A stretch of DNA of 52,845 nt, taken from positions 1 to 52,845 of IMG/VR virus record IMGVR_UViG_3300034251_000012. One strand, 5' to 3'. Made by a program: the position numbers and the translations under genes. The stretch is from a virus. Below the pieces are notes generated by a model. That model had not been told where the DNA came from. It saw only the letters and a program-made list of their open reading frames with translations, and made no database searches. The number at the start of each line of letters is the position of its first letter. Within the stretch, counting starts at the first letter, position 1. Shown here in pieces: positions 21,655-46,514 of the stretch.

Positions 21655-21974
21655 TCGCCCCTCCGCTTTCTCGCCACGGCCGCGGCCAGCGATTCGAGCT
21701 GCGCGTCCGGTGACTCCCCACTCCCGGCCGGGGCTGTGACGGGGGCGGCAGGAGGCTCCGCCGCGAGACTCACGCCCGGTTCCATCCTGACGACGAAGTA
21801 GACGCCCCTGAGCGCCGCGCGTTCGGCCGTTTGGGTCGTCCCCTCCTCGAAGATGAGGATGTCGCCCGGTCGCGCGCCGAGCTTGTCTCTGACCGACGCG
21901 GGGACGCGCGCGCGGTAGCCCCCGCTGCCGTCGAGGAGGAATTGCGCTTTAGCCGTGATGAATTCTCTGGTCAT
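21651..21974 (-). CDS. AbrB/SpoVT-like DNA-binding protein
   Basis: The motif RARVPASVRDKLGARPGDILIFEE matches the swapped-hairpin AbrB/MazE signature. Its stop overlaps the initiator start by 4 nt. Confidence 0.55.
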   Translation of the reverse strand: MTREFITAKAQFLLDGSGGYRARVPASVRDKLGARPGDILIFEEGTTQTAERAALRGVYFVVRMEPGVSLAAEPPAAPVTAPAGSGESPDAQLESLAAAVARKRRGE

Positions 21975-30109: not shown

Positions 30110-30581
30110 ACTTCCCTTCGACCCCGGCGACGACGATGCGGCCGACGAGCGCGAGTTCGAGGCGTTGACAGAAGCTCTCAACGAAGTCACAGCGAAATGC
30201 GCGGCCGGCGCTGTCGAACAAGACCGCGCCAACGCGCGCCGCGCGGAACTGATGAGCGCGGTCGGAAACCACCGCCGCCGGCGCGCGCGCACGCTGCTCG
30301 ACCGGTTCCTCCCGCCCATCACCTTCTACCAGATCGAGTTTGCCGACCCGACGCCCGAAGAGATCGTTGCCTTCGCCGACGAGAGCGTCGAGGTGGACGC
30401 CGAGATACGGCGACACCAAAAGCTCCTCGGTCTCACCGACGCCCTCGTCAATCAATTCGTGCGCCAGACGTGGAAAATATCCGCGCGCTGGCCTGACCTC
30501 AACTTCCGTTACCGGCGCCTGCTGCTCGGGGCGCTCCGCGAAAAGGCGAAGCCTTTAACATCACTCAAAGGAGCACTTTAA
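30093..30581 (+). CDS. Hypothetical acidic protein (162 aa)
   Basis: GTG start at 30093 preceded by GGAGGAGG at optimal spacing. The upstream part of the 233-aa track ORF is out-of-context Arg/Ser-rich sequence. Confidence 0.55.
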   Translation: MSALLKLPFDPGDDDAADEREFEALTEALNEVTAKCAAGAVEQDRANARRAELMSAVGNHRRRRARTLLDRFLPPITFYQIEFADPTPEEIVAFADESVEVDAEIRRHQKLLGLTDALVNQFVRQTWKISARWPDLNFRYRRLLLGALREKAKPLTSLKGAL

Positions 30582-32386
30582 TGTCCGCTGTCATTGATCC
30601 GAACATTCGCGCCCTTCATGCCCGCCTCTCGATGGACGATCTGGAGATCGTCGAGCAGCTCGGCCTTTGGGGCTGGACACTGGTCGCCGACGGCCGCGGC
30701 TACCGCTGGGAGAAAGAAAAGGGCGTCGGCGGTAGCGCAATTCTGATGGAAGACGAGCAGGTCGTCTCGATGGCGCGCGAGATGATGTCGCGCATGGATG
30801 AGCCGGCCGCGCCGGTCGAAGCGGCTCCCGGCGCGCCGACAGAAGAGCCGGCCGCTGTCCTCCCGGACGATCTCAGCGCGCTCGGCTGGGTGCTCCTCAC
30901 GAATCACGGGATGTGGTTCTGCCGTCAAGAGGAAGCCAACCTGACGACCGGCATGAAGAGCAAGGTCAAGGCCGCGTTCGACGAGGCGCGGGAGATTCAG
31001 GCGCGGCAGCCCATTACCACGCAGGAGACCTCCGAAGAGTTGCCGGAGATGCCCCAAGACCTCGCCGACGTGGGCTGGACGTTCAAGCGTGAGGGCGACG
31101 AGTTGTACGCGGAGCACGAGGAGCGTTATGTCTGCACGAGTCGCGACCAGTCAGACCCGGCCGTCGTCATCGCCGAGGCCTACAGCATGCAGGAAGACTA
31201 CGAGCGAAGCGTCGAGGAGGCGAATCGCGTGCCGGTGCGCCCCAACACAACCGCTCCTGACGAGCAGTTGCTTCCAGTTGATTCCATCCGTCTCGACGGC
31301 GACACGCAGACGCGCGCGCAGCTCGACATGCTCACCATCACCAACTACGCCGAGTTGATGCGCGGCGGCACCAGATTTCCTCCGGTCGAAGTCTTCTTCG
31401 ACGGCGAGCATTACTGGCTCGCCGACGGCTTTCACCGCGTCGCCGGGACGAAGCAGGCCGAGATCACCGAGATCAATGCCAACATCCGGCCGGGCACGCA
31501 GCGCGACGCGATTCTCTTCTCCGTCGGCGCGAACGCGCTGCACGGCCTCCCGCGCACGAACGCCGACAAGCGGCGCGCCGTCGAGAAGCTCCTGACCGAC
31601 GAGGAGTGGCGCGGTTGGACGGACGGGCGCATCGCTGACGCCGCCGGGGTCTCCCCGCCCTTCGTCAAGTCCATCCGCGACGAGTTCACTCAAAAGGGAT
31701 TAGAGTCGCCGGCCGTGCGCATCGGGAAAGACGGGCGCAAGATCGACACCTCCAACATCGGCGACCGCGAGGCGGCGACGGCCGCGGCCGAGGCGCAGCC
31801 GGAGCTGCCGGGCGCGGCCGCAGTGGAGACGGCCGCTGGTGACGCGCCGGCTGCCGTTGCCGATAATTCCCTCTCAAATGAGGAGCCGAAAAAGGCAACG
31901 AGCTTGCCCGCAGGCGTCTCGGAAGCCCCGGGCGACACTCAGGCCGCACCGGTCGCCGCCGCCCCGCCAGAGGTCACGCCTGCGCAGACCGCGGCCGTCG
32001 CAGCACCCGCTGCCGCTGGAGTCGCATGGCCGGAGCAGCACCTCATCATCACCTTCGACATCAAGGCCGGGAAGTCGTCGAAACGCGCAGTCACGATCTC
32101 AGGTCGCGCCGGAGAAGGCGTGCCCGTCTTCCTCACCGAGTTCACCCTCGCCGACCTCGAACCGATGTCTACCGCCTTCGCCTCGCTCGTCGGCCGGCTG
32201 GGCGGTGGCGTCGGCGCGCCCGCGGTTACTCCTACGGTCGAAGCCGAGGCCGAGGCCGCGCCCACCAACGCTCCCGCAAAGAAGGGCGGCGGGCGGAAAC
32301 CGGCGAAGCGTGCCACGAAGAAAGCCGCAGCCAAGAAAACGAAGAGCGGGAAAGCTAAACAGCCCGCCAAACAGGCGCGCGGGTAA
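30581..32386 (+). CDS. ParB/Srx-fold (ParB N-terminal domain) protein with triple N-terminal repeats and an Ala/Pro/Lys-rich tail
   Basis: The ParBc hallmark is present: VDSIRLDGDTQTR...HYWLADGFHRVAG...ILFSVGANALHGL. There are three ~45-aa GW-containing repeats at the N-terminus and a Lys-rich C-terminus. Confidence 0.8.
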   Translation: MSAVIDPNIRALHARLSMDDLEIVEQLGLWGWTLVADGRGYRWEKEKGVGGSAILMEDEQVVSMAREMMSRMDEPAAPVEAAPGAPTEEPAAVLPDDLSALGWVLLTNHGMWFCRQEEANLTTGMKSKVKAAFDEAREIQARQPITTQETSEELPEMPQDLADVGWTFKREGDELYAEHEERYVCTSRDQSDPAVVIAEAYSMQEDYERSVEEANRVPVRPNTTAPDEQLLPVDSIRLDGDTQTRAQLDMLTITNYAELMRGGTRFPPVEVFFDGEHYWLADGFHRVAGTKQAEITEINANIRPGTQRDAILFSVGANALHGLPRTNADKRRAVEKLLTDEEWRGWTDGRIADAAGVSPPFVKSIRDEFTQKGLESPAVRIGKDGRKIDTSNIGDREAATAAAEAQPELPGAAAVETAAGDAPAAVADNSLSNEEPKKATSLPAGVSEAPGDTQAAPVAAAPPEVTPAQTAAVAAPAAAGVAWPEQHLIITFDIKAGKSSKRAVTISGRAGEGVPVFLTEFTLADLEPMSTAFASLVGRLGGGVGAPAVTPTVEAEAEAAPTNAPAKKGGGRKPAKRATKKAAAKKTKSGKAKQPAKQARG

Positions 32387-32407
32387 GCGTCGCCGAGAAG
32401 GAGATTT

Positions 32408-32794
32408 ATGGCGTTAGTGAAAATCGACGGGGCGGAGATCGAGCTGCCCGACGACATGTGCAAAACCGACAAGGGTGTCCGCGACGCCCTCACCCCCTAT
32501 TACCCGGGCGCGGCAAACTCGGACGTGAAGCGCGAGACGAAGGGCAGCGCGACGATCATCACGGTGACAAAACGCGCGGGCAGCAAGGGCAGCTACGCGG
32601 CCGTCTTCGAGGCGCTCGAACGTGCCCCCGAAGAGATCACCCCGCTTCTCCTCTTGTCGCCGCGCGCGCGCCGCGGCGACGTGGACGCTGCGCTCTCGCG
32701 TTCACTGGAAGACGCGCGGGAGGTGGCGCGCGCACGCGCGGCGCTCGACGCCGCGCCCTCTGTGGCTGCGGCGGATGTCCCGGAAGGGTTCTGA
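32408..32794 (+). CDS. Ubiquitin-like (beta-grasp, PRTRC protein C-like) domain with a ~67-aa C-terminal extension
   Basis: The first 61 aa end in TVTKRAGSKG, resembling from memory the small PRTRC Ubl proteins that end in G-x-K-G. A strong AAGGAG RBS is present. Confidence 0.55.
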   Translation: MALVKIDGAEIELPDDMCKTDKGVRDALTPYYPGAANSDVKRETKGSATIITVTKRAGSKGSYAAVFEALERAPEEITPLLLLSPRARRGDVDAALSRSLEDAREVARARAALDAAPSVAAADVPEGF

Positions 32795-32804
32795 GATTGA
32801 AGCC

Positions 32805-33698
32805 ATGAACCTCCGCTCCGTCACACGGATCAAGTCGCAGCTCCTCGCCGCCCCCGCGTTCATCAACGTGCGGGAGGCGGCGGTGCGGCTCGTCAGCGCC
32901 CGTGACCGCTGCTCGCCCGGGGAAGCGCTGAGGCGCATCAAGATGGACGGGGATTTCACGGACGTCCTCGACCTGCTCCGTCTCGTCCTACCGGAGCCGG
33001 AGCAGGAGTGGCGACGCAAGTTCGTCACCATCTACGACCTCTCGCCCGTGCTCGGCTTCCCCATCAATGAAGATTACATGATGGACATGGCCGAAGAGTG
33101 GCGTGCGGAGGGCGCGCGGATCGGAGACATGTCAATCCCTTTGTACAGTCTGAACCCCACCGGCGAGAATTATAGCTCCGTGTCGCTCGCCTACTCGCTG
33201 GCCCTGCTCCTCGACCGCACGCCCTCGGCCGAGGAATACCGGGGATCACGCATTGACGATGAAGTGTGGGCGCGCCTCTCAGTTACATACGACCTCGAAC
33301 CGGCGGATAGACCCGAGGGTGGCGTCTCTGACGAGGCAATCGAGGCGACCTTCTCCCGGCAGCGCAACCCCCTGCGCTACATACCGCGCGCGCAGGCCGT
33401 GACCCGCTACGACACCGGGTGTGGCTTCCTCGACTTCAATGACGAGTGGGGCGATGCGGACATTGAATGGTCGCGCCAGAACGTGATCTGGCTGCGACGT
33501 GACTACAAAGACTCCCAGCGGATTCTGAAACGAATTGAGAAGCTCGACGAATGGCTGAAGCGCGATACGACGGAGCGCATCTCGCTCGCCCTCAGACTTT
33601 ATCGCAAGGCGCAAAACACAGATGTCAAGAAAAAGCAGACAGCCCGCATCCCCGTCAACACCGGAACAGGCGGCCGAGCGCTCGTTGATGTTCTTTGA
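32805..33698 (+). CDS. Cassette protein of unknown function (297 aa; occupies the position of PRTRC protein F)
   Basis: Internal ATG at 32805 (MNLRSVTRIK...). It lies between the Ubl and the E2-like gene. Confidence 0.5.
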   Translation: MNLRSVTRIKSQLLAAPAFINVREAAVRLVSARDRCSPGEALRRIKMDGDFTDVLDLLRLVLPEPEQEWRRKFVTIYDLSPVLGFPINEDYMMDMAEEWRAEGARIGDMSIPLYSLNPTGENYSSVSLAYSLALLLDRTPSAEEYRGSRIDDEVWARLSVTYDLEPADRPEGGVSDEAIEATFSRQRNPLRYIPRAQAVTRYDTGCGFLDFNDEWGDADIEWSRQNVIWLRRDYKDSQRILKRIEKLDEWLKRDTTERISLALRLYRKAQNTDVKKKQTARIPVNTGTGGRALVDVL

Positions 33699-34332
33699 CG
33701 GGCAGATTCTCTACCGCAGGCGCACCGAGCGCGGCGAGCAGTATAAGTTCTTATCACCGGCCGCCGTGGCGGAGGCCTTTCGGCAGGCGCCCTTCGACAC
33801 CGGCCACCTGCCGCCCGGCGTCTTCAGGTGCGGCCAGAGCGCGCGCGGCGACTTCGCCGCCCTCGTCATCCCGGCACAGCGTCACGAGCTGTCTGTTGAA
33901 AGCGCGCGCCGCGGCGGCGGGCGGGCGGTGCTCAGTTTGTGGCTGCCGGCATTCGTCTTCTTCGGCATCGCGCAGAGCTATCACGTCTGGGCGGTGAAGT
34001 CGGATGTGACTACGCCCGATCTCGTGCTGCATCACGCGCCGCTGCCGAACGTCTTCAACAACGGCGGCATCTGCTGGGGGCAGAACGACCGCCCCGCCGC
34101 CTCGACGCAAACCATCACCGAGGCGTGGAAACTCTTCATCGGATCGCCATTCAACGAGCATGCGGCGTCGAATAAAGTCCGGGGCGTCGCGGGCGACGTG
34201 CGCCCGTATCTGCGGAACGTCTCACGGTCGAAGAGGCGGTTTCCGCTCGGCGATCTGCTGCCGATGAGGATGCACGGCAGGAGCACGCTCGACCCGGCGA
34301 TCACGGAACTCATTCAGGAAGGTGGGCAATGA
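33688..34332 (+). CDS. E2/UBC-like protein (PRTRC protein B-like)
   Basis: HHAPLPNVFNNGGICWG resembles the E2 HPN...G-x-I-C active-site region. The start is ambiguous (33622 or 33688). Confidence 0.6.
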   Translation: MFFDGQILYRRRTERGEQYKFLSPAAVAEAFRQAPFDTGHLPPGVFRCGQSARGDFAALVIPAQRHELSVESARRGGGRAVLSLWLPAFVFFGIAQSYHVWAVKSDVTTPDLVLHHAPLPNVFNNGGICWGQNDRPAASTQTITEAWKLFIGSPFNEHAASNKVRGVAGDVRPYLRNVSRSKRRFPLGDLLPMRMHGRSTLDPAITELIQEGGQ

Positions 34333-34994
34333 TTCAACTCGCAGGCTATCGCGTCATCCGCCGGGGTGAAAATTTGCAGGACGCGGCGGATCGGTCGGAC
34401 ACGCCCCCGCGCTCGACGATGTTCGATTACCTCTTCGGCGCGAACGGCGTCTTCATCAAGGCCTCGCGCATGTTCCTGAGCGCCTGCGTCCCTGTCGGCT
34501 GGTGCGACATCCGCGGCCTCGCCGTGATCGAGCCATCCGTTGCCCTCGACGCCCCGCGGGTCCCGGCCGCCCTCATCGCGCGCGCGCTGAACCGCTCGCG
34601 TGAAGTGTGTGTGAGAGCGGGCAAGCCCCGGGAGATTCTGTTCTACCTTATTTACGAAGACACCTCGGAGACGACCGGCGAGTGGAGGCTCGTCGAGCCG
34701 GAGCAGATCGCGACCGGCGGGAGCGTCCACCCGACGGACGACGCCGGCGATGAATACCGCCGGGCGATCATCGAGCTGCACAGCCACAATGAGATGCAGG
34801 CCTTCTTCTCGTCGCAGGATGACCGGGACGAGCAGGGCTTCAGAATCTATGCCGTGATCGGAAACATCTTCACGAAGCCCGCCTTGCGCGTGCGCGTAGG
34901 CGTCTACGGTTACTTTTACGAGCTGGCGGCGGCCGACATCTTCGAGTTGCCGGAGGGGCTGGAAGACGCGGCAGAGATCGGAGAGAGACGATGA
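34329..34994 (+). CDS. JAB/MPN+ (JAMM) metalloisopeptidase (PRTRC protein A-like)
   Basis: ELHSHNEMQAFFSSQD gives H-x-H-x7-S-x2-D, with upstream Glu residues. It has an ATGA overlap with the upstream gene. Confidence 0.8.
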   Translation: MIQLAGYRVIRRGENLQDAADRSDTPPRSTMFDYLFGANGVFIKASRMFLSACVPVGWCDIRGLAVIEPSVALDAPRVPAALIARALNRSREVCVRAGKPREILFYLIYEDTSETTGEWRLVEPEQIATGGSVHPTDDAGDEYRRAIIELHSHNEMQAFFSSQDDRDEQGFRIYAVIGNIFTKPALRVRVGVYGYFYELAAADIFELPEGLEDAAEIGERR

Positions 34995-35431
34995 ACATTT
35001 ACATTGCTAGTAGTTGGAAGAATGTCCACGCAGTCGAAATGCTCACCGCATTGCTGCGTGAGCGCGGCCATACGGTGCTGTCCTTCGTGGAAAACAATCA
35101 CGGAGAGAATCCTAACTCGTCCATCAATGAAAAGGCCGGAGAGAAGCCCGTGCCATTCGACGAATGGTGTGCCTCCCAAGACGGCGCTCGCTCGTTCACC
35201 TATGACATCGCAGGCGCGACAACCTCAGACCTTGTGATCTACGTCGGCCCGTCAGGCACTGATGCCTGGGCGGAAGTCGGCGCGGCATGGGCGAGCGGCA
35301 GACTAATTCTCGGGCTGTGGGCAAAGGGCGAGCCGGTCGGGTTGATGCGCCGCATGGTCGAATGGTCAACGGACTATCGCCAGCTACTCATTAACGTAGA
35401 TTCTGTCGTGAAAGCGAAAGAGAAGCAATGA
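34991..35431 (+). CDS. Nucleoside 2-deoxyribosyltransferase-like protein
   Basis: The N-terminus is MNIYIASSW and the segment DLVIYVGPSGTDAWAEVGAAWASGRLILG fits the NDT-like fold signature. The gene is AT-richer than its neighbours and has ATGA overlaps on both sides. Confidence 0.5.
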   Translation: MNIYIASSWKNVHAVEMLTALLRERGHTVLSFVENNHGENPNSSINEKAGEKPVPFDEWCASQDGARSFTYDIAGATTSDLVIYVGPSGTDAWAEVGAAWASGRLILGLWAKGEPVGLMRRMVEWSTDYRQLLINVDSVVKAKEKQ

Positions 35432-36315
35432 GAAAGAACCCGACGACACTCGATCTCTCCTACGCAGTCGCCGCGACCGTCCTCGCGCGCCAGCCCGAGC
35501 GCGGCCCCATCACCTTCTGGCTCGTCGGGTGCGGCGGTAACGGCTCGCACGTCGCGCAGCACCTCGGCCGCCTGCTCTTCTCGATGAAGGCGCGGGGCAT
35601 ACGCGCGCGCGCGATCTTCGTGGATCACGACACGGTCGAGCCGAAGAATGTCGGCCGGCAGAATTTCAGCTCGCCCGAGGTGGGTCGCAACAAGGCCGAG
35701 ACGCTCGCCCGCAGGTTCGGCGCGGCGTGGGGTCTCGACATCGAGGCCGTGCCCTCCCGCTTCAAACACACCATGTTCACGCTCGATGCCGATCAGGACG
35801 AGCTGGGCGTCATCGTCGGGTGCGTAGACAACGCCGCGGGGCGCGTCGAGATGAATAAGTGTCTCTCCCGGAATGGGCAGGGGCGTGTCCCTGACGTGTG
35901 GCACCTCGACTGCGGCAACCACGAGCAGGCCGGGCAGGTGCTCCTCGGCTCCGCGTGGCACGCCGACCAGTTGAAGGGCGCCTTCCCCTCCCGCTCCCTG
36001 TGCCATGCGCTCCCCGGCCCGGCGCTGCAAAGCCCGGAGCTACTCGTCGCGCGCCCCGAGGAGCGGGCGGCGGCGAAGAAGATGTCATGCGCCGAACTCG
36101 TCGCGGCGAACCAGCAGTCGCACGACATCAACGCGGCCGTCGCGGTCGCCGCGAAGACGATGCTCACGCAGCTCTTCCTGACGCGAGACCTGAAGCGACT
36201 CGCATGCGAGGTGAACAATCTGGCAGGCTCGATGCGCTCGACCTACGTCACGCCGGAGGCAGTTGCCCGGATCACGTCCAAGCCGGTCAAATTCATTTAC
36301 AGGGAGGCCGCCTGA
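35428..36315 (+). CDS. ThiF/E1-like adenylating enzyme
   Basis: The Rossmann loop is WLVGCGGNGSHV, followed by FVDHDTVEPKNVGRQNF...VGRNKAETLA, typical of the ThiF/MoeB/E1 family. Confidence 0.85.
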   Translation: MRKNPTTLDLSYAVAATVLARQPERGPITFWLVGCGGNGSHVAQHLGRLLFSMKARGIRARAIFVDHDTVEPKNVGRQNFSSPEVGRNKAETLARRFGAAWGLDIEAVPSRFKHTMFTLDADQDELGVIVGCVDNAAGRVEMNKCLSRNGQGRVPDVWHLDCGNHEQAGQVLLGSAWHADQLKGAFPSRSLCHALPGPALQSPELLVARPEERAAAKKMSCAELVAANQQSHDINAAVAVAAKTMLTQLFLTRDLKRLACEVNNLAGSMRSTYVTPEAVARITSKPVKFIYREAA

Positions 36316-36992
36316 TGGAACTCGGAGAAGTCCGGCGCGCCGCCGAGACGCTTGTCACCATGATGAGCAAATACTGCGAGCGCGTCGAAATCGGCGGCAG
36401 CATCCGTCGCGGGAAGCCGCAGGTCAAAGACATGGAGATCGTCTGCGTACCGAAGTGGGAGATTGCCCCCATCGAGGAGCAGGTGCGCGACCTCTTCGGC
36501 TCGCCGCCCAAGACCCCGGCCAATTTCAACCTGCTGCACTACTGGGCAGTGTGTGAGCAAAAGATTCTGACGTGGATCAAGCCGGGCACGCAGGAGATCA
36601 TCCCGTGGCAGGTGAAGCCAGAGGGCAAATACTGGCGCGGCGTCTTCACCGGCGCGGCGATGGAGAGTTTCAAGCTCGACCTCTTCCTCGCGCGGCCTGA
36701 GAACTTCGGGATCATCCATCTCATCCGGACGGGCGCGGCGGAGTTCTCGGCCGCCGTCCTCGGCCACGCGAAGCACAACACGCCCTACCAGACGGAGAGC
36801 AGCTACTACGAGGAGCACGAGATGAAGGGGAAGCCCGAAGGCTACTTGGTGCGCAAGGCGACCGGCGAGCGGGTCGAGACGCGCGAAGAGCATGATGTGT
36901 TCGAGTTGCTGGGGCTGGAGTATCTGGCGCCGGCCGAGCGGATTGATGGGCGCAGCCTGCGCCCGCTGGCTCGAAGGGTTTCCGAGTCGTGA
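36315..36992 (+). CDS. Pol beta / PolX-like nucleotidyltransferase
   Basis: GGSIRRGKPQVKDMEIVCV (GS...D-x-E) and the C-terminal HDVFELLGLEYLAPAER resemble minimal family-X polymerases. The start overlaps the E1 stop. Confidence 0.6.
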   Translation: MELGEVRRAAETLVTMMSKYCERVEIGGSIRRGKPQVKDMEIVCVPKWEIAPIEEQVRDLFGSPPKTPANFNLLHYWAVCEQKILTWIKPGTQEIIPWQVKPEGKYWRGVFTGAAMESFKLDLFLARPENFGIIHLIRTGAAEFSAAVLGHAKHNTPYQTESSYYEEHEMKGKPEGYLVRKATGERVETREEHDVFELLGLEYLAPAERIDGRSLRPLARRVSES

Positions 36993-37235: not shown

Positions 37236-37694
37236 CCCTCTTTTTTGAATATGGAGAATCCCATGAGCTATCCCTACTATTGATCGTGGCGGAGTGGTTG
37301 GGGCGATAAGGAACTTGACTCAAAACGAATTAGAGTGAAAATGGGGATTATGAGGGGAGATATGAGTAATGGCTGACGACAGGGAATGGTTTACATCTTT
37401 CGACAGCGAGTTTTTAATACGTGAACTGGAAAACAAGGATACCCACATCGTAAACCTTTACGGCCGTCTGGTACACGGCGAATGGGAATATGCAATCGTT
37501 CGCTGGCGCTACCGCCGCCTACTCTCATCCTGCGATTCAAGGGTAAACAGATTCTCGAAGCGGAAGAGTTGTGAAAATTCTTCTTACCTTAAACCCCTGC
37601 ACTTCCCCGCCCTCCTTATCCCTTTGTGCGTCGCTATCAACAGTTGCAGCCGTGTAACCCGGCGTGAAACCCGCGCGCGCCTATTGGCTGCCGC

Positions 37695-38789
37695 CTACCT
37701 CCGGGACGGGCTGGAGCTGTGTGTGTGTGTGCATCTCGCGACGCCCTTGTCCGGCCCCTCCGGGTACCAGAAGCCGACGCCGGCGCAGTCCGGGCACTTG
37801 CGCCGCTCTTCCCGGCTGAGCGCGGGCGCGGCCACGCTCTCCAGCACGGTGGCCATCTCCGCCACACGCGCCTTGTCCGCTTTCCACAGGCGGCGGCGCA
37901 GGTGCTCCGAGAGGAACGCCGGCACGTTCGAGACCGTCGTGCGCGCCGCCGCGATCCGCAGCTCCGCGACGAGTATCTCCGCCAGCTCCTCCCACCGCTC
38001 GCCGCTCGTCGAGACCTTGCCCGTCAGTTCCCTCTCGACCTCGATCAGCTTGGCGGTCAGCCGGCGCGCGCCAGCGTCATCATCAGAATTCCCTTCTTTA
38101 GTCTTAATTAAAGTCTTAGCATCACTCGAAGGTGTTGATTCTATAACCACTTGACCCCCTCCACCTCCTACCGGTTTTTGGGTAGACCCTCCACCCAATT
38201 CTTGATCGGAGGTGGGAGGTGGTATGAGGTGGTGGTAGGAGGTGGAGGGAGGGGGCAGCTCTTCGGGAATGAAGACCTCATATCGCGCCCCGTCGTTGTC
38301 GCCGAGTTCCCACTTCTGCACGATCAGCCCGACGGCTTGCAGATGCCTCAGATGCCCGCGCAGGGTGTTGTGACTGATACCCGCCCACTCCATCATGTCG
38401 CCCTGTCTGGCCTGGATCATCCGGACGGGGACGATTGCACCTCGCGTGCGTTGGTAAAGGGCGTCGTAGAGCTTCTTCGACGTGCCTTTGAACAGGCCGG
38501 CCGGCAGCGCGTCGCGGCTGATCGAATTGGCCACCCGCGCGAAATCTCTTCGGGGGGCTGCGTCCTGAGAACTGGGTGGAGGGGGGTGGTGGTAGGTGGT
38601 GGTAGGAGGGGGCAGAGCAGCTTCCACCGGAGACTCGGGGGCGTCGTGTGATCCCGCCAGCAGGAATGCCAGCGCCTTGCGCGCCGGTGTTTTACCTTCC
38701 GGGGCTGCGCGCTCAAGCGCTTCGTTCGCCCGCTGATCCGCTGCTGATAATTTGGTTTTCGGCGGTGGCATGAGCGACCTCTTTCGCAA
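37695..38789 (-). CDS. Second initiator-like / centromere-binding-like protein (paralog of 20575..21654 at the C-terminus)
   Basis: The wHTH-like core is MMEWAGISHNTLRGHLRHLQAVGLIV. The C-terminal CPDCAGVGFWYPEGPDKGVARCTHTH matches CPDCHGKGFWYPAGED...KCKH of the other initiator. Internal DNA repeats encode PPPTTTYHHPPPP and PPPSTSYHHLIPPP. The 5' end overlaps parA by 77 nt, so the true start is uncertain. Confidence 0.55.
   Translation of the reverse strand: MRKRSLMPPPKTKLSAADQRANEALERAAPEGKTPARKALAFLLAGSHDAPESPVEAALPPPTTTYHHPPPPSSQDAAPRRDFARVANSISRDALPAGLFKGTSKKLYDALYQRTRGAIVPVRMIQARQGDMMEWAGISHNTLRGHLRHLQAVGLIVQKWELGDNDGARYEVFIPEELPPPSTSYHHLIPPPTSDQELGGGSTQKPVGGGGGQVVIESTPSSDAKTLIKTKEGNSDDDAGARRLTAKLIEVERELTGKVSTSGERWEELAEILVAELRIAAARTTVSNVPAFLSEHLRRRLWKADKARVAEMATVLESVAAPALSREERRKCPDCAGVGFWYPEGPDKGVARCTHTHSSSPSRR
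38157..38250. repeat. Inverted and direct GGTAGG/GGTGG repeats inside the second initiator-like gene
   Basis: ccctccacctcctacc (38157-38172) is the reverse complement of ggtaggaggtggaggg (38235-38250). Related copies lie at 38187-38196 and 38209-38225. Confidence 0.5.
38575..38612. repeat. Second block of GGTGGTAGG repeats in the same gene
   Basis: ggtggaggggggtggtggtaggtggtggtaggagggggcag; compare ggtggtaggaggtggagggagggggcag at 38231-38258. Confidence 0.5.
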
Positions 38790-39498
38790 GTCGGTTGTAA
38801 TCCAGATACCCGCTTGATCGCGAGTAATCGAGCAGTGGGCGACCGGCCGACATGGCGACCGAGATGTCCGTGTTCAGATTGATCTTGGCATTGAGCAGGT
38901 GGCTCTCGAATTCCTCTTCGAGCCGGCGGCGTAAATTCTCGGACTCTTTGACGCCTTGACGGAAGAAAGTTTGTAAGGCCAGCACTTTCCATCGCTTTGA
39001 GAAAGCCTGACTGAGTCCCGTCATCAGGTCGAGCAGTTCGAGCGCCTCTTTGAGCGCCAGAGAGGATGAGACGGGCACGATCACGTGATCGGCAGCCATC
39101 AGTGCATTGACTGTCAGGAGCCCTAAATTCGGCGGGCAGTCAATCACGGCGTATTCGTATTCCAGCCCTTCGAGGGTGAGAGCCAGTTTCTCTTCACGAC
39201 GGTAGACGTTTCTGAGTTCCACTTCTCCCATGGCCAGCTCGCGGTTGGCAGGGAGCAGGAACGTGTGATCGCGCAGCGCACGAATAGCGTCGGGCGCGAC
39301 CGCACGGCCGAAGAGCACGTCATAGATGGTCGGCGAGAGCAGGTTGGCGTCGAGCGCGAATCCTTGCGCGCAGTGGCCCTGCGGGTCGAAGTCCACGAGC
39401 AGGGTCTTGTGCTTTAAGCCGAGGAAGGCCGCGAGGTTGACAGACGTGGCGGTCTTACCGACTCCGCCCTTCTGGTTCGCGATGGCGATTGTGATCAT
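38713..39498 (-). CDS. parA: ParA/Soj-family partition ATPase
   Basis: The deviant Walker A is IAIANQKGGVGKTATSVNLAA. The protein is 261 aa. Confidence 0.9.
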   Translation of the reverse strand: MITIAIANQKGGVGKTATSVNLAAFLGLKHKTLLVDFDPQGHCAQGFALDANLLSPTIYDVLFGRAVAPDAIRALRDHTFLLPANRELAMGEVELRNVYRREEKLALTLEGLEYEYAVIDCPPNLGLLTVNALMAADHVIVPVSSSLALKEALELLDLMTGLSQAFSKRWKVLALQTFFRQGVKESENLRRRLEEEFESHLLNAKINLNTDISVAMSAGRPLLDYSRSSGYLDYNRLAKEVAHATAENQIISSGSAGERSA

Positions 39499-39704
39499 GC
39501 GGCTTCCTCCTTCGGTTTCCTCGGCCGGCCCACCTTGAGCTGCGGGACGGTAGCAGTCTCGGGCACCTCCCAGTAATGACCGGACGGCGTCTCTCGCTTG
39601 ACGGCCTCCGGGATGAGTCCCTGCTGGAGCCAGTTGGCGACGGTCGTATAAGCCACCCCCTGCCGGGCGGCGAACTGTCTCGGCGTTAGCATCTTTCCCC
39701 CCAT
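39495..39704 (-). CDS. Excisionase/MerR-type HTH DNA-binding protein upstream of parA
   Basis: The HTH-17-like segment is LTPRQFAARQGVAYTTVANWLQQGLIP. It has a 4-nt overlap with parA. Confidence 0.6.
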   Translation of the reverse strand: MGGKMLTPRQFAARQGVAYTTVANWLQQGLIPEAVKRETPSGHYWEVPETATVPQLKVGRPRKPKEEAA

Positions 39705-39743
39705 TTCGATCAGCCTCTCCCCCGGCTCTATCGGGTGCCGGGC

Positions 39744-39772
39744 ATCATAGTCGCCCCGCGAAAATAAATCAA
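39744..39772 (-). promoter_or_regulatory. Promoter candidate of the HTH-parA operon
   Basis: On the minus strand it reads TTGATT-N17-TATGAT. The palindrome AAAATAAA/TTTATTTT lies at 39761-39781. Confidence 0.55.
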
Positions 39773-39801
39773 GTTTATTTTGTAGCCCCTACCTTTTTCT
39801 C

Positions 39802-39830
39802 TTGACATTCTATCTTGTAACCCCTACAAT
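39802..39830 (+). promoter_or_regulatory. Consensus sigma70-type promoter flanked by direct repeats
   Basis: TTGACA (39802-39807), N17, TACAAT (39825-39830). The direct repeats TGTAGCCCCTAC (39781-39792) and TGTAACCCCTAC (39816-39827) bracket the -35 and overlap the -10. Confidence 0.65.
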
Positions 39831-39866
39831 GTTTCTTGTCGGCGGAATGAAAAGACGGAAGGGAAA

Positions 39867-40651: not shown

Positions 40652-41776
40652 ATGCACGAAAACAATACCACTCCGGCCGCCCAAACGGTCACACTCTTCA
40701 ACCGCACGCCGGGACGCGACGCCGTTTACATCCTCGAACTCAAAGAGGTTGACGGCCGCTGGCAGTTGTTCTACTCGAACGGGCGGCGCGGCTCGACGCT
40801 CACGACTAAACCCGTCACACAGCCCGTCGCCTACGAAATCGCGCTCAAAGCCTTCGAGAGCAAAAAGAGAAGCAAGCTCGCGGGCGGCTATCACCCGGCG
40901 GAGTATTTCGGTGAAGGGGACGCGAGCGCGCAGACGCACGTGGCTACGTCCGACGGAGAGCGCGAGACGGGCGTCTTCCCGCAACTCCTGACCGAAGCCG
41001 ACGAGCGCGAGGCCGACGAGTTCATCCGCGACTCCGCATGGTGGATGCAGGAGAAGTTCGACGGCAAGCGCATCATCCTCGACGTTACGAGCGGAAGGGT
41101 GCGCGCCATCAACCGCCGCGGGCTTGTCTGCGGCATCTCTGAGAGCATCCGCTCGGCAGCGGTCGCGCTCTCGTCCGAGTTCGGCGACTTCCGCCTCGAC
41201 GGCGAGGCGATGGGCGACACCTTCGTCGTCTTCGATTGTCACAGCATCAACGTGTATGACTTGTCGGGCTGTGCCTACAGTGCGCGATTGAGCAACTTCA
41301 CGGGCTTGGTGCGGCAGATGCCTCCGGCTCTGCGTCTTGCCGACGTGTGGATGACTGAGACGGAGAAGGCCGAGCATTTCGCGCGCATCAAGGCCGAAGG
41401 GCGCGAGGGCGTCGTGTTCAAACGGCACGCCGCGCCCTACACGGCGGGCAGGCCGAACTCCGGCGGCGACCAGCGCAAGGTGAAATTCACCGCGACCGTG
41501 ACGGTCGTCGTCGAGCGCGTCAACGCGAAGCGGTCTTTCTCGATGCTCGCCTACGTTGACGGCCAGCCGACGAACATCGGCAACTGCACCGTCCCGGCGA
41601 ATCGCGAACTGCCCACCGCGGGGCAATTCATCGAAGTCCGTTACCTATACTCCTATCCCGGCGGCTGCCTCTTCCAGCCGCGCTACGTTGACCTGCGCGA
41701 CGATCTCACGCTCGCCGACGTGGCCGCACAGCCCGCCCTGAAATACAAGGCTGAGGACGGAGAGGACTGCGAGTAA
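40652..41776 (+). CDS. ATP-dependent DNA ligase with an N-terminal WGR-like domain
   Basis: Motif I is WMQEKFDGKRII, motif IV is EGREGVVFKRH and motif V is QRKVKFTAT. The N-terminus VYILELKEVDGRWQLFYSNGRRGS is WGR-like. Confidence 0.85.
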   Translation: MHENNTTPAAQTVTLFNRTPGRDAVYILELKEVDGRWQLFYSNGRRGSTLTTKPVTQPVAYEIALKAFESKKRSKLAGGYHPAEYFGEGDASAQTHVATSDGERETGVFPQLLTEADEREADEFIRDSAWWMQEKFDGKRIILDVTSGRVRAINRRGLVCGISESIRSAAVALSSEFGDFRLDGEAMGDTFVVFDCHSINVYDLSGCAYSARLSNFTGLVRQMPPALRLADVWMTETEKAEHFARIKAEGREGVVFKRHAAPYTAGRPNSGGDQRKVKFTATVTVVVERVNAKRSFSMLAYVDGQPTNIGNCTVPANRELPTAGQFIEVRYLYSYPGGCLFQPRYVDLRDDLTLADVAAQPALKYKAEDGEDCE

Positions 41777-42771: not shown

Positions 42772-43635
42772 TCACTCGAAGCATCTGGCGATGAATGCGG
42801 TCAGATCGTCCGTCGTCTTCTCAACGCCCACGTTGTGATCTCCCTCCAGCGTGACGACCTCGCTCTCCAGCGCCGCGCCCGCGACGAGCCGCGCGAATGC
42901 CCCGCCGTGCATGTACCACGGCACGATGCGATCTCCGTCTCCGCCGTAGAACCTGAGCCGGACACCTGCCCAGTCGCGCGCGTCACGCGTCTGCGGATCG
43001 TGCCCGATGGTCTGCGCCTCGAAGTTCGAGCCGTCCGGGTTGATGCCGTAGGCGAAGTTGATGCCGGTGGCCATCTGCGCATTGTAGTTGTACTGGCCGC
43101 GCAGGTGCGTCACCGGGTAGTAAAGCGCGGCGCACCTGACCGGGATGCGCCCGTCCGGAATTGAGGTCAGGGTCACGAGGCCGCCCATCGAGTTGCCGAG
43201 CATCGCAACGCGCGTCGTGTCCACCCCGTACCGGCTCACGATGTAACTGTATAGCTCGAAGTTCGCGTCGAGTGCTTTCCGGTTGCCCCAGTTGTAATAG
43301 CCGCCGTCCGGGTTGTCGGTCAGGCGGGACATGGCGACGATGTAGCCCTGCTCAAGCAGCGCATCGAGGAGCGCGCGGAAGGGCGGCAGATCGTAAAACT
43401 GCCGCTCGGTCTGACCCGCGGCGTGGTTCAGGATGACGAGCGGGCGCCCCGGCCCGAAGCGATGGTTGCTCTTACCTATCGCCCGACGTGGGATGAACAC
43501 CATCGCAGGCGTCGAGAGTGAGGTGACGGACACCATGTGAGGCGGCGTCGTCTCGCGCGCGGCTTTGAATTTGGATTGTGAAAAGGCCGGGGAAGTAGTG
43601 AGTAGAAGGGCGAGCGTCAGGGTGAGAGTTTTCAA
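42772..43635 (-). CDS. Secreted alpha/beta hydrolase (esterase/lipase-type), paralog of the fibre C-terminus
   Basis: The signal peptide is MKTLTLTLALLLTTSPAFSQS. The nucleophile elbow is GNSMGG, and candidate Asp (GDGDRIVP) and His (EGDHN) are present. About half of the residues match 825-aa protein residues ~590-825 by eye. Confidence 0.8.
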   Translation of the reverse strand: MKTLTLTLALLLTTSPAFSQSKFKAARETTPPHMVSVTSLSTPAMVFIPRRAIGKSNHRFGPGRPLVILNHAAGQTERQFYDLPPFRALLDALLEQGYIVAMSRLTDNPDGGYYNWGNRKALDANFELYSYIVSRYGVDTTRVAMLGNSMGGLVTLTSIPDGRIPVRCAALYYPVTHLRGQYNYNAQMATGINFAYGINPDGSNFEAQTIGHDPQTRDARDWAGVRLRFYGGDGDRIVPWYMHGGAFARLVAGAALESEVVTLEGDHNVGVEKTTDDLTAFIARCFE

Positions 43636-43738
43636 AGGGTGAGTCTCCGTAATAGATTTACTACATGAAGGGTAGTACGGGTAAACTACTACACCAAACG
43701 TAGGATTTCGTAAAGGTTAATTTGTGTATGATTAAGGG

Positions 43739-43978
43739 ATGGTGGTATCGAGAGTGCGGGAGGTGGCGGAGGCGCGCGGCATCAGAAGTTCCTATGAGCT
43801 TCAGAACATTGCCAAACTTGCGCCGACGATGGCGGTCAGGTTATGGCGCGGCGAGGTCACGCGATTCAGTGTGGAGACGCTCGATAAATTATGCGTTGCG
43901 CTCAGGGCTGAGGTAGGTGAACTGCTGGTGCATGTGCCGGCCGGTGAGCGAGAGGGAAGTGACAAAGGTCAGCATTGA
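43739..43978 (+). CDS. XRE-type HTH regulator divergent from the hydrolase gene
   Basis: VREVAEARGIRSSYELQNIAKLAPTMAVRLWRGE is HTH-like. The start is uncertain (ATG 43739 or a downstream GTG). Confidence 0.6.
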   Translation: MVVSRVREVAEARGIRSSYELQNIAKLAPTMAVRLWRGEVTRFSVETLDKLCVALRAEVGELLVHVPAGEREGSDKGQH

Positions 43979-44023
43979 GGCCAGAGGCTTAGAAGTTCTA
44001 AGCCTCTGGCCTCAATGCTGACC
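43967..44023. terminator. Bidirectional terminator-like perfect hairpin
   Basis: ggtcagcattgaggccagaggcttagaa / ttctaagcctctggcctcaatgctgacc form 28-bp arms between convergent genes. Confidence 0.65.
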
Positions 44024-44036
44024 GGCCGACATGGCA

Positions 44037-46514
44037 TCAGACGAATACGCGATCAAGGAAGGTCAACAGGTCGGTGATCATCCCCTCAATATTTTGCAGG
44101 TGAGTGCCCGCCGAGCTGACGATGTCCTCTTCAGTGGCTACGCTCGCTATCTGCGCCGCGAAGTCCCCGGTGTTCTCCGTCGGGTTGACCGTCACGTCGC
44201 CCGTGTTGCGGTAGAACCGGAAACGCTTGTTGAACGAAGCGTGCGCGCCGAGCAGGCGCGGATCATGACCGGCGGTTTGTGTCGCATAGTTGCCGCCGCC
44301 GGGAATGTTGTAGGCCGTGTTGATGCCGGTGCTGAAGCCGTTCGCGTAGACGTGGGCGAGGTCAAAGACGCAATCAATGCAGGCCGCCCCTTTGACCGGG
44401 ATGTTCCCGTCCACAAAGGCGAGCGCGGTTGCGAGGCCGCCCATGCTCAAGCCGATCATGGCCACCTTCGTCGTGTCAACGTTGTAGTTGGCGACGACGT
44501 AATCGTAAAGCTCGACGTTGGCGTCAATGGCCGCTTGGTTGCCCCAGTTGTTCTCTCCGGTCGCAGTGTTATCCGTCAGCCGAGAGATCGCAACAATGTA
44601 GCCACGCTCGACGAGCGCGGTCAGGATCGAGCGGTAGCTGGCCGTGTCGAAGAACATGCGCTCGTCGAACCCGGCGGCGTGATTCAGGATCACGAGCGGG
44701 CGGTTGCCCTTCAGCCCCTGTTTCTTGACGACGAGCGCGGGCGTGCTGAGTGTCGGCGCATAGCCGCCCGTCTCGTCAATCCAGTCGTGCTCCCACGTGA
44801 GGCCGTTCGACGCGCGGATCGCCGCGTAGTGAATGGCAACGTCGGCAGCGGAGTGCGCGTGGTCGAGCACTCCCACCATCCGCACGAAGCCCGCGCCCGG
44901 CCCGATCTTGAAAGACGTGAAGACGCCCGGATTCGTCTGCGGCGTGAAGGTCTGCGCGAGCTGGCCGTCCACGTAAAACGAGACGCTCGTCGCCGAGGTC
45001 TGCACGTAGGTCAAGACTGACCACTCATACATATAGCCCTTCGGCGTCGTGCCTTCCGAGCCGCTCACGCGGTAGGCGTGCCAGCGATTGCCGAGCGAGA
45101 AGATGTGATTATTCGTGTCGAAGTAGAGTAAGTAAGAGCCGGGGAAGGCGGCCTGCCTTTTGGCGAGGAGATAGATCGTCTTCGTCTCGTCGGCCGGGAC
45201 GGGGACGGTCGCATACTTCGTGGTATCGAGCGCGACGACGAAGGGCCGGTCGCTCTCGGAGAATGTCCCCGCGGCCGTCTCGCTCGCGTAGTAGCTCAGG
45301 CGCAGGCCCGAGGTGGCCTGCGTACCGTTGCGCGCGTTGCCCGACAAGTCAGGCCACGTCTGCACGAGGTCGCCCTGCGTGAGGTCGAGTTCGGCCGCGT
45401 CGAGGAACGTGAGGAAACCGGAGATCGTGTCGGGGCTATAGGGAAGCGCGCCCGTCGTCAGCATCTTGTTGACCGCGCCGACCAGATTCAAGTTGCTCGC
45501 CGTCAGCCCGCCCGAGACGCTCATGCCCCCCGTCACGATGGGGGCCGTCAGGGTCTTATTCGTGAGCGTGGCCGTCGCGGCGTTCTTCGTCGCGTCCGAG
45601 GTGTTGTCCACGTTCCCCAGTCCGAGACTCGTGCGTGCCGTGCCGGCGTTCGCCACGTCGCTCAAATTGAGGGACGGGCGGAGCGGCGTGTAGCCGAGCG
45701 CGGTCGTGACATTGCCGCTCGACAACGAGGCGTAGACCGCGCCGGAGACTGCTTCGCTGAGCGCCAGGACGGCCGCCTGCGAGGCGAAGGTGTACTGGGC
45801 GGCGAGGTTCATGTCCATCACCTTGTAAGGCGCGAGGTTTACAGTCGCCGTCGAGAGCGGAACGTCGTAGATGCCGAGCAAGGTCTGCGTCCCGGCGGCG
45901 TTCACGTGATTGACCTGATAGTAAGCGGTCGGCGTGAGTGAGCGCGACGGGTAGACCGAGACATCGAACTGCCCGGAGACGTTGAGGACGGCCGAGACGG
46001 TCGCGCCCTTCGGGATCAGGCCGCCGGGCGAAGTTGTCGGCTGCGTCAGGATGAACGTCACCTTGCCCGTGAGCGGGGAGCCGCCGGCGTCGGTGAGAGT
46101 GTCAATGATGCGCGTCTTCGCGTTCGTGACGGTGAGCGTGACCGTGCCGGCCGTGCTCGTCTGGCCGCCGCTCGTGACCGTGAAGTTGAAACTGTCCGCG
46201 CCGACGTAATCGGTGACGGGCGTGTAGACGACCGCGCCGGTCGCAGTGTTGAGGCCGGAGAGCGTGCCGTGCGCCGGGCTGGTGGTGGTCGCGTAGACGA
46301 GCGATGTGCCCTCCGCGTCGAAGCCCTGCAACTGAACGGCGTTCTGCCGGTTGGCGGCGACGGTCGTCGAGAAGCTCGTCGCGACGGGCGTTGTGAATGA
46401 GGCCGCCGCAACTTTTAAGGTAAAGGCTTCAAGTGATTCTCTCGACCACGTCGAGGCGTTAGTTGCGATTGTGAAGACGAGTAAGAGCGCGATGAGCGAT
46501 TTAAAGGTTTTCAT
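44037..46514 (-). CDS. Fibre-like multidomain protein with a C-terminal alpha/beta hydrolase domain
   Basis: Contains an Ig/cadherin-like segment (GTLSGLNTATGAVVYTPVTDYVGADSFNFTV), the fibre motifs NLSDVANAGTARTSLGLG and ATLTNKTLTAP, a LamG-like region and a C-terminal GLSMGG hydrolase. The N-terminus looks like a signal peptide. Confidence 0.7.
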   Translation of the reverse strand: MKTFKSLIALLLVFTIATNASTWSRESLEAFTLKVAAASFTTPVATSFSTTVAANRQNAVQLQGFDAEGTSLVYATTTSPAHGTLSGLNTATGAVVYTPVTDYVGADSFNFTVTSGGQTSTAGTVTLTVTNAKTRIIDTLTDAGGSPLTGKVTFILTQPTTSPGGLIPKGATVSAVLNVSGQFDVSVYPSRSLTPTAYYQVNHVNAAGTQTLLGIYDVPLSTATVNLAPYKVMDMNLAAQYTFASQAAVLALSEAVSGAVYASLSSGNVTTALGYTPLRPSLNLSDVANAGTARTSLGLGNVDNTSDATKNAATATLTNKTLTAPIVTGGMSVSGGLTASNLNLVGAVNKMLTTGALPYSPDTISGFLTFLDAAELDLTQGDLVQTWPDLSGNARNGTQATSGLRLSYYASETAAGTFSESDRPFVVALDTTKYATVPVPADETKTIYLLAKRQAAFPGSYLLYFDTNNHIFSLGNRWHAYRVSGSEGTTPKGYMYEWSVLTYVQTSATSVSFYVDGQLAQTFTPQTNPGVFTSFKIGPGAGFVRMVGVLDHAHSAADVAIHYAAIRASNGLTWEHDWIDETGGYAPTLSTPALVVKKQGLKGNRPLVILNHAAGFDERMFFDTASYRSILTALVERGYIVAISRLTDNTATGENNWGNQAAIDANVELYDYVVANYNVDTTKVAMIGLSMGGLATALAFVDGNIPVKGAACIDCVFDLAHVYANGFSTGINTAYNIPGGGNYATQTAGHDPRLLGAHASFNKRFRFYRNTGDVTVNPTENTGDFAAQIASVATEEDIVSSAGTHLQNIEGMITDLLTFLDRVFV

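Follow-up and report, generated by a model that had tools for sequence, protein, structure and literature searches.

The 52,845 nucleotides of virus record IMGVR_UViG_3300034251_000012 from IMG/VR, the window analysed here, carry on the minus strand a three-gene cassette of ~2.6 kb that encodes a small helix-turn-helix (HTH) protein, a ParA-type ATPase, and an initiator-like protein, X, in this order. Judged from its sequence, the HTH–ParA–X cassette is, on balance, probably a compact plasmid-type maintenance cassette in which X is a divergent lambda-O-like initiator with the origin inside its own gene. According to this proposal, the winged helix of X would bind lineage-specific repeats (blocks A and B and the inverted block C) around its own coding segment, the X–repeat nucleoprotein complex would open an adjacent conserved AT-rich element, and the C-terminal domain of X would recruit host replication proteins. 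The basic N-terminal tail of X would engage the upstream-encoded ParA, and the repeat-bound complex would double as a partition complex, which would explain the absence of ParB. With this cassette, the prophage would persist as a low-copy plasmid, and a second initiator gene, an O-like gene with six iterons, would drive lytic replication.

Organization of the cassette

The initial annotation had described a minus-strand operon for an HTH protein, a ParA with the KGGVGKT motif, and a protein of 364 amino acids, and the three open reading frames (ORFs) are indeed found there. The genes and the region upstream of them are as follows.

37695–38789, minus strand: protein X, 364-amino-acid ORF, an apparent divergent homolog of lambda-O-like initiators
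38713–39498, minus strand: ParA-type partition ATPase, 261 amino acids, with the deviant Walker A motif KGGVGKT
39495–39704, minus strand: small HTH protein, 69 amino acids, with a weak MerR/HTH_17 match in Pfam and a PHROG excisionase/regulator match at ~4e-4
39705–39866: divergent promoter region, from a promoter scan and direct reading of the sequence
39744–39772, minus strand: candidate cassette promoter, the weaker one, from the promoter scan
39802–39830, plus strand: strong near-consensus promoter TTGACA-17-TACAAT (11/12 matches), which drives the rightward genes
39780–39792 and 39816–39830: two operator-like TTGTA-N5-TACAA palindromes that bracket the plus-strand promoter, putative operators

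ParA matches AAA_31 (1.7e-37) and CbiA (2e-13) in Pfam and the ParA-like family in PHROG (3e-43), and it reaches 1.9e-22 against ParA_partition of NCBIfam, which is under the cut-off of that model. It is a Walker-type ATPase of the kind found in type I partition systems and, having no N-terminal HTH, it is of type Ib-like small size. The 69-amino-acid HTH protein is probably the autoregulator of the operon, acting at the TTGTA-N5-TACAA sites. Its counterparts were compared across homologous loci (80 of species-representative genomes, 12 of IMG/VR, and several looked up directly), which come from metagenome-assembled genomes (MAGs) of Pyrinomonadaceae and from viral contigs; the family of the first-gene HTH varies among them (HTH_17, HTH_3, or HTH_8-like).

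The translation of X probably begins at the ATG at 38771, which would give a protein of 358 amino acids whose frame overlaps the 3′ end of the ParA gene by 59 nucleotides. The source gene call for X (P0001, 77% coverage) is 279 amino acids long and begins past repeat block A; the family alignment favours the form of ~358 amino acids over this call.

Homology and predicted structure of protein X

The O-like initiator of the window, a protein of 359 amino acids, is recognized by the PHROG family "replication initiation O-like" at 9e-12. The C-terminal part of X aligns with it by BLASTP at E = 6e-10 (36% identity over 92 amino acids), including the motif CPDCxGxGFWYP…C-x-H. When a profile of 93 X homologs was aligned by hhalign with a profile of 37 O-like homologs, the probability was 97.6% and E = 4.4e-12 over 229 columns, and the match takes in the winged helix (residues 99–175 of X and 22–110 of the O-like protein) as well as the C-terminus. 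By these comparisons, X appears homologous to the O-like family over its whole length, and the initiator-like paralogy that had been proposed from the letters of the window is supported. The C-terminal motif and the HTHT tract said to be common to both proteins are indeed present in both; the tracts are encoded by (TG)n runs at 37718–37731 in the X gene and at 21013–21024 in the O-like gene. The 52.8-kb window has no other (TG)≥5 runs, each of the two lies inside an initiator-like gene, and HTHT is not conserved in X homologs.

Single-sequence searches say little about X. In Pfam, it has weak matches to RP-C (0.0055) and HTH_20, with nothing else listed at E≤0.1, and it has no match in PHROGs or NCBIfam; the link to Phage_rep_O is therefore detectable only at the profile–profile level. 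Neither X (Pfam, NCBIfam) nor the 93 family members (Pfam) match any ParB or ribbon-helix-helix (RHH) family. Homologs of X form more than 1,558 clusters, nearly all from MAGs of Pyrinomonadaceae and other Acidobacteria and from soil metagenomes, and none of them carries a Pfam domain; no homolog is present among the 72,556 plasmids of PLSDB or the 50,697 deposited phage genomes of INPHARED. A search of the sequences in PDB with the X-family profile gave nothing below E = 0.28, and no paper clearly describing the X family or phage-plasmids of Acidobacteria was found in the literature. The parts of the X gene are listed below in the direction of its translation.

38655–38771, minus strand: basic N-terminal tail (MPPPKTK…ERANEALER…), a candidate ParA-interacting peptide
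38568–38618: repeat block A, coding for amino acids 58–72 just 5′ of the winged-helix segment and predicted to be disordered
38265–38558, minus strand: winged-helix domain, approximately amino acids 78–175, AlphaFold predicted local distance difference test (pLDDT) >90
38208–38261: repeat block B, in the orientation of block A and sharing with it a 16-nucleotide exact match (CCTCCTACCACCACCT on the coding strand)
38154–38202: repeat block C, inverted copies, encoding GGGSTQKPVGGGGGQ
38077–38150: AT-rich segment, with a GC content of 0.34 at 38100–38149, a candidate DNA-unwinding or host-factor site
37710–38084, minus strand: C-terminal domain, amino acids 236–360, common to the O-like initiator, with the Cys/His codons at 37725–37796

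In the AlphaFold model, amino acids 88–175 form a confidently predicted winged helix, and amino acids 46–82 and 192–234 are disordered (pLDDT <50) and coincide with the repeats. With the whole of X as a Foldseek query, the N-terminal domains of RepA_N proteins come at the top (4pt7, 4pql, and 5kbj, E = 1.6e-3 to 1e-2, template modelling scores 0.2–0.5), and the centromere binder AspA of pNOB8 is among the fold matches. The C-terminal domain, when modelled alone (pLDDT 85), consists of three long helices and a CPDC…C-x-H hairpin resembling a zinc knuckle, whose residues C332, C335, C353, and H355 are invariant in the X family. The initial annotation had compared this motif with that of DnaJ, a likeness that does not hold: there is a single CPDCxGxG followed by C-x-H, no DnaJ family is matched at Pfam E≤0.1, and the domain has no match among PDB folds (best E = 4.2).

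Repeats inside the X gene

The G-rich repeats of X and their 16-nucleotide inverted pair, which had been noticed at the outset, are real, but their location had to be corrected: they lie within the coding sequence, where blocks A and B flank the segment that encodes the winged helix. G-rich copies are found at 38208–38258 and 38575–38615, the perfect inverted pair is formed by 38157–38172 and 38234–38249, and 38187–38202 is complementary to 38568–38583 at 15 of 16 positions. Allowing up to three mismatches, GGTAGGAGGTGGAGGG has six matches, of which four are inside the X gene, where 0.27 matches would be expected; this number was not reached in any of 100 shuffles. The repeats encode LPPPTTTYHHPPPP (amino acids 58–72) and LPPPSTSYHHLIPPPTS (amino acids 177–193), and the inverted arm encodes VGGGGGQ.

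Every homolog of X has short tandem units on either side of the winged-helix segment, which are specific for the locus yet alike within it. The coding-strand unit of the window is CCTACCACCA, and units found elsewhere include ACCCATCCCA, CCCCTGTCA, ACCACTCCCCA, ACTCA/ACTCG, CCCAGCCCA, and CTAGTAC. Among 85 non-identical loci, blocks A and B of one gene share an exact direct match whose greatest length is, in the median, 16 nucleotides (up to 45), compared with 7 for blocks taken from different loci. For the longest inverted match inside the downstream block, the corresponding medians are 13 nucleotides in the same gene and 7 across loci; 8 nucleotides are obtained with control segments of these genes. 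Within ±3 kb, the 9-mers of each locus are confined to its two blocks, so that no copies at the 9-mer level are seen in the promoter or flanks, where they would mean autoregulation via the same sites.

The inverted copy follows the DNA unit of the lineage even though the encoded peptides are unrelated (GGGGGQ, GWAGLG, VRDVRQ, and SRGSRGG), which argues for selection on DNA, selection at the protein level being insufficient. In pairs of loci that share repeats, sequence identity is 0.82 in the winged helix, 0.84 in the recognition helix, and 0.58 in the C-terminus, compared with baselines of 0.48, 0.33, and 0.53, respectively. The repeats thus follow the winged helix, whereas no such co-variation is seen with the C-terminus, as expected if repeats and winged helix form one specificity module. 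Taken together, the repeats appear to be DNA-level sites, neither a product of chance nor solely a protein feature. The small HTH protein was also considered as the determinant of repeat identity and rejected since the repeats follow the recognition helix of X, though the two are not cleanly separable.

The G-rich units had also been suggested as possible G-quadruplexes. No canonical motif of at least four G3+ tracts with loops of 1–7 nucleotides occurs on either strand of 37600–38900, and this idea is not supported for the window; in homologs, such motifs are seen on the template strand in block A at 30 of 85 loci and in block B at 24 of 85, and hence not family-wide.

The AT-rich element

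Directly past block B, the GC content falls to 0.34 at +450 to +480 nucleotides from the winged-helix start, as computed over all loci, and over ~30 codons the GC content of third codon positions is 0.26–0.38 versus 0.55–0.75 elsewhere in the X gene. The dip contains a family element, AAGACT-N6-AAGACT…GATGATGA, whose reverse complement stands in the window at 38077–38119. Its AAGACT-N6-AAGACT part, with a background rate of 0.03 per kb, is present at 76 of 87 loci; its frame is fixed, and conservation of the wobble bases is 90% or higher. Both in the window and family-wide, the arrangement is that of a lambda-O-type gene: in-gene iterons (B and C) followed by an AT-rich region, past the DNA-binding domain. 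Variable iterons beside a constant AT-rich element have the layout of an origin, as far as sequence can indicate. Gene orientation diverges at the cassette: its strand carries 29% of the coding sequence on the upstream side and 60% on the downstream side (p = 0.003), which is weak evidence.

Coupling to ParA

The ParA gene lies immediately upstream of X at 74 of 86 loci and usually overlaps the X frame, as seen at the 50 loci with a placeable ParA stop codon. The type of lysine/arginine-rich N-terminal tail of X follows the ParA subtype: the Spearman correlations (rho) of ParA identity are 0.66 with the identity of the tail, 0.15 with that of the winged helix, and -0.06 with that of the C-terminus. 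One tail subfamily begins with MSQKKKSGLQRGLSEIV, which we take to resemble the ParA-stimulating N-terminus of chromosomal ParB/Spo0J. No ParB or RHH gene is present in the cassette at the loci examined. The 601-amino-acid ParB-like protein encoded elsewhere in the window was considered as the partner of ParA and rejected, as it belongs to a PRTRC-like cassette and is absent from the cassettes at other loci.

At the remaining 12 of the 86 loci (L011, L022, L047, L052, L055, L071, L074, L078, L080, L084, L093, and L094), an AAA_22 (ExeA/TniB-like) ATPase of ~280 amino acids stands in the place of ParA and overlaps X; the match is at 3e-21 for L011:5010-5852.

The phage genome and its O-like origin

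The ends of the window share an exact overlap of 127 nucleotides. An independent contig, ERZ27253079 (k141; 52,859 nucleotides), begins at window position 26568 and is 100% identical across the 15,994 nucleotides compared. After subtraction of the overlaps the two independent assemblies give the same length (52,859 − 141 = 52,845 − 127 = 52,718 bp), and the genome therefore closes as a circle without host flanks. Pfam and PHROG searches identify a tape measure protein, capsid protein, S49 protease, Mu-like portal, large terminase, DUF2280 protein, and M15 endolysin, as well as CI-like and Cro-like HTH proteins, a SNF2 helicase, and a DNA ligase. What the window contains is the complete circular genome of an integrase-free tailed phage.

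That no integrase, recombinase, transposase, or protelomerase could be recognized had been an impression gained from the ORF list alone, with a hidden Markov model search advised. This search has been run: integrase, resolvase, transposase (including DDE), and protelomerase families gave zero Pfam matches at E≤0.01 among the ~66 ORFs of the 52,718-bp circle, where ORFs without family assignment remain, several of them of 200–700 amino acids. Likewise, no tyrosine, serine, or DDE recombinase signature was found among the window ORFs; all stretches between the scanned ORFs are shorter than 600 nucleotides. A tailed-phage gene set, ParA, and two initiator-like genes thus occur on one circular replicon with no integration machinery within the scanned ORFs, as in phage-plasmids. 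From this gene content, the life of a plasmid prophage is the most likely one.

The second initiator gene and its iterons are situated far from the cassette.

20575–21654, minus strand: O-like initiator, 359 amino acids
21065–21212: six palindromic iterons of ~20 nucleotides (core GGTAAGTCnGACTTACC) inside the O-like gene, with a spacing of 23–33 nucleotides

Past the iterons, the O-like gene contains a purine-rich direct repeat, GAAATCCAGGA, and a (CA)n run, and the region 21065–21212 has the features of a classic lambda-type in-gene origin. The gene belongs to a module with the SNF2 helicase, which is presumed to be the lytic replication module. Each of the two initiator-like paralogs was expected to have private repeats, and this is the case, with G-rich blocks in X and six palindromic iterons in the O-like gene. 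A helicase-loader family (e.g., a homolog of lambda P) is absent from the Pfam and PHROG matches of the scanned ORFs.

Some of the O-like homologs P0140, P0144, P0157, P0167, and P0190 carry DnaA_N (PF11638), and the linkers of the DnaA_N-type homologs encode repeated peptides, e.g., VVNGIDR three times. In P0144, the match to the O-like protein of the window stops at approximately residue 216 and the C-terminal remainder is unaligned. DnaA_N in these homologs and the end of the P0144 alignment suggest that the CPDC domain occupies a slot for partner recruitment.

A MazE-like protein is encoded directly upstream of the O-like gene (21651–21974, minus strand).

Comparison with known systems

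By analogy, the cassette would work like lambda O/ori-lambda, repABC, and RepA_N systems, in which the origin lies inside the initiator gene. With lambda O it has in common a winged helix, iterons and an AT-rich stretch downstream of it in the gene linker, in this order, as well as a C-terminal domain that would recruit partners, and the O-like paralog of the window shows the classic layout. It differs in that X has an extra repeat block upstream of the winged-helix segment, a basic N-terminal tail, and a C-terminal Zn-knuckle domain without a known fold; in addition, X never occurs without an accompanying ATPase, which is mostly ParA, and its units are short tandem C-rich motifs rather than palindromes of ~19 bp.

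In the repC gene of repABC replicons, the origin lies inside the gene, and silent changes in its A+T-rich region abolish replication; repC of p42d has no iterons (PMC3155836). The repABC systems of Alphaproteobacteria, in which RepA is a ParA, RepB a ParB, and RepC the initiator, resemble the cassette in that a single operon contains both the ParA-type ATPase and an initiator gene with the origin (oriV in repC) and its A+T-rich region inside it, as proposed for X, and they serve large secondary replicons, several compatible copies of which coexist in a genome. The X cassette, however, has no RepB/ParB, starts with a small HTH gene, has clear iterons, and resides in an Acidobacteriota host. RP-C is matched only at the above E-value of 0.0055 and by 2 of the 93 family members, there is no RepB gene, and a scan of the window with Rfam detected no counter-transcribed RNA.

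RepA_N initiators (pSK41, pAD1, and pCF10) have a conserved winged-helix N-terminal domain and a C-terminal domain that is host-specific, and the variable central region of the gene carries the origin repeats. X resembles them in this general layout and in its top fold matches, which have E-values of just 1e-3 to 1e-2; partition genes in RepA_N plasmids are separate and have their own DNA-binding adaptor, and neither X nor the 93 family members match RepA_N in Pfam.

Type Ib partition systems (ParF–ParG of TP228 and delta–omega of pSM19035) comprise a small ParA without an N-terminal HTH, a downstream partner with a flexible basic tail, and short direct or inverted sites. The cassette shows a similar set: a small ParA without HTH, a partner encoded immediately downstream with a basic tail, and short direct and inverted units. 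Unlike the ribbon-helix-helix dimers of type Ib systems, X is an O-like winged-helix protein of 360 amino acids, and its sites are inside its own coding sequence beside a conserved AT-rich element. The partners of ParA in type I partition belong to the ParB/Srx HTH or RHH classes, and X with its O-like winged helix falls outside both. The cassette, as judged from these searches, appears to be a member of neither the repABC nor the RepA_N nor the ParB families.

P1 and N15 are temperate tailed phages without integrase in which plasmid-type replication and ParA-based partition are separate from lytic replication. The phage of the window, too, is an integrase-free tailed phage with plasmid-type and ParA functions, in common with P1, N15, and mycobacteriophages with parABS; here, however, no ParB and no protelomerase are encoded, the protein proposed to initiate plasmid replication is paralogous to the O-like initiator of the lytic module, and the host belongs to an uncultured lineage of Pyrinomonadaceae. 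Extrachromosomal prophages of mycobacteriophages carry parABS partition and no integrase (PMC7157519).

Distribution across loci

The cassette occurs in 12 viral contigs of 20–68 kb. It also stands alone among accessory genes on contigs of 66–376 kb, where the ±10 kb around it contain neither another rep-like gene nor an integrase or phage gene. Up to eight cassettes are present per MAG (eight in MAG9 JAIVJZ, seven in SMAG_U7400, and five in SMAG_U3420), and cassettes of the same MAG never share repeats (66 pairs, median match 8 nucleotides, maximum 14), as incompatibility avoidance would give.

The closest relative of X (84% identity) is encoded at the extreme end of a 46-kb contig (L001, JGI 3300035686), where it is followed by a fragment of a DDE_Tnp_1_2 transposase; its repeat unit, CCACCTCCTACCA, is a variant of that in the window. 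Contig ends are generally enriched for cassettes, with 16 of 75 ending within 600 nucleotides downstream of X and 8 of 75 within 600 nucleotides upstream, which could result from assembly breaks at paralogous sequence or at element boundaries.

Alternative explanations

A number of observations weigh against an in-gene origin in X. The phage already owns a full O-like origin, and so tight a coupling to ParA is classically the mark of a centromere-binding protein rather than an initiator. No enrichment of DnaA boxes is seen within ±2 kb of the cassette and no GC-skew switch occurs at the cassette in 46 loci. Phage_rep_O (PF04492) is matched weakly and below its cut-off by just 9 of the 93 family members, and the fold matches of the winged helix are weak and generic, other winged HTH proteins following those of RepA_N. 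The AT-rich element also codes for a conserved peptide, KTSFKT..DDD, and its conservation may in part be at the protein, RNA, or translation level, while simple physical adjacency and recombination in block A could contribute to the correlation between ParA and the tail. The large MAG contigs that bear cassettes could be either plasmids or chromosomes. What the analysis shows directly is the homology, the repeat architecture and its co-variation, the conserved AT-rich element, the ParA linkage, and the absence of recombinases from the scanned ORFs; DNA binding, origin firing, ParA contact, and lifestyle are inferred.

According to the main rival proposal, X is solely the centromere-binding partner of ParA, a functional analog of ParB built on a winged helix, with the repeats as its centromere, the C-terminal domain as an oligomerisation module, and replication proceeding from 21065–21212. 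ParA directly upstream in 74 of 86 loci with a usual overlap, the basic tail that tracks the ParA subtype, AspA of pNOB8 among the fold matches, and the lack of any other ParB candidate in the cassette all fit a centromere binder, and in their short direct and inverted units the repeat arrays are similar to type Ib centromeres such as the omega heptads and parH of TP228. It is nevertheless the whole-length homology of X to O-like initiators that such a protein would leave unaccounted for; an AT-rich element with conserved wobble bases has no obvious role in a centromere, stand-alone cassettes have no other rep gene within ±10 kb, and at 12 of 86 loci the position of ParA is taken by an AAA_22 ATPase. 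A role confined to the centromere is considered rather unlikely, and less likely than the in-gene origin. Far less credible is the explanation by which the repeats merely encode Pro/Thr-rich disordered linkers homogenised by slippage and gene conversion, with no cis role. The blocks do code for predicted-disordered segments (pLDDT <50) and their units are short and of low complexity, yet the inverted copy follows the DNA unit despite different peptides, it is the recognition helix, not the adjacent C-terminus, that co-varies with the repeats, and the O-like paralog has classic palindromic iterons at the equivalent place; these facts make a purely protein-level origin of the repeats very improbable.

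The lifestyle is a separate matter. The phage might be strictly lytic or pseudolysogenic, or might integrate via an unrecognised recombinase; ParA–X would then have another role, for example to position replicating genomes or to act as an exclusion or incompatibility weapon directed at resident replicons with related cassettes. In favour of this, several ORFs of 200–700 amino acids are unassigned, the portal is Mu-like, and hosts carry many related cassettes. Against this stand the same circle in two assemblies with no host flanks, the CI-like and Cro-like HTH genes, the lack of a DDE, tyrosine, or serine recombinase signature, and the occurrence of the same cassette alone on large non-phage contigs, so that a phage without plasmid lysogeny seems improbable.

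Novelty and implications

Several features of the cassette are new relative to the systems compared: iteron blocks on both sides of the segment for the DNA-binding domain, a family-constant AT-rich element, an Acidobacteriota host, and a mosaic of three separately inherited modules; the direct pairing of initiator and ParA without ParB is apparently new as well. A bolder version of the in-gene-origin proposal, which we put forward only tentatively, is that one protein serves as both initiator and ParA adaptor and that the repeat-bound complex is origin and centromere at once, in a ParB-less replicon of ~2.6 kb. In this version, many co-resident secondary replicons and phage-plasmids of Pyrinomonadaceae would be built on one family with swappable modules (ParA/tail, winged helix/iterons, and C-terminus).

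If the proposal is true, X defines a large uncharacterised replicon family of soil Acidobacteria, with more than 1,558 clusters and with neither a Pfam or PHROG model nor a solved structure. It would provide another case of an initiator gene that holds its own origin and extend this principle to ParB-less coupling of an initiator with ParA. Phage-plasmids would be documented in Acidobacteriota, and many secondary replicons would be suggested in Pyrinomonadaceae genomes. The 2.6-kb cassette would be a candidate backbone for shuttle vectors, and its diverged repeat types could form a compatibility series.

Other features of the window

The PRTRC-like cassette lies between the O-like module and the HTH–ParA–X cassette and consists of the ParB-like protein, Prok-E2_D/PRTRC_B, Prok-JAB, and a ThiF E1, the last of which matches PRTRC_ThiF at 137 bits, slightly under the cut-off of the model. 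Scans of the window with Rfam and for tRNAs were empty. The remaining features are given below.

30581–36315, plus strand: PRTRC-like ubiquitin-type conjugation cassette (Pfam, NCBIfam, PHROG)
30581–32386, plus strand: ParB-like protein, 601 amino acids, matching phrog_1033 at 1.5e-21, a member of the PRTRC-like cassette
35898–36992: protein with a DNA polymerase beta thumb domain, after the PRTRC-like cassette
16713–17132, minus strand: stand-alone response-regulator receiver domain
40652–41776, plus strand: ATP-dependent DNA ligase
42772–46514, minus strand: two proteins containing alpha/beta-hydrolase domains

Big_9 and cadherin-like domains are also present in one of these two proteins, which is possibly an enzyme associated with the tail.

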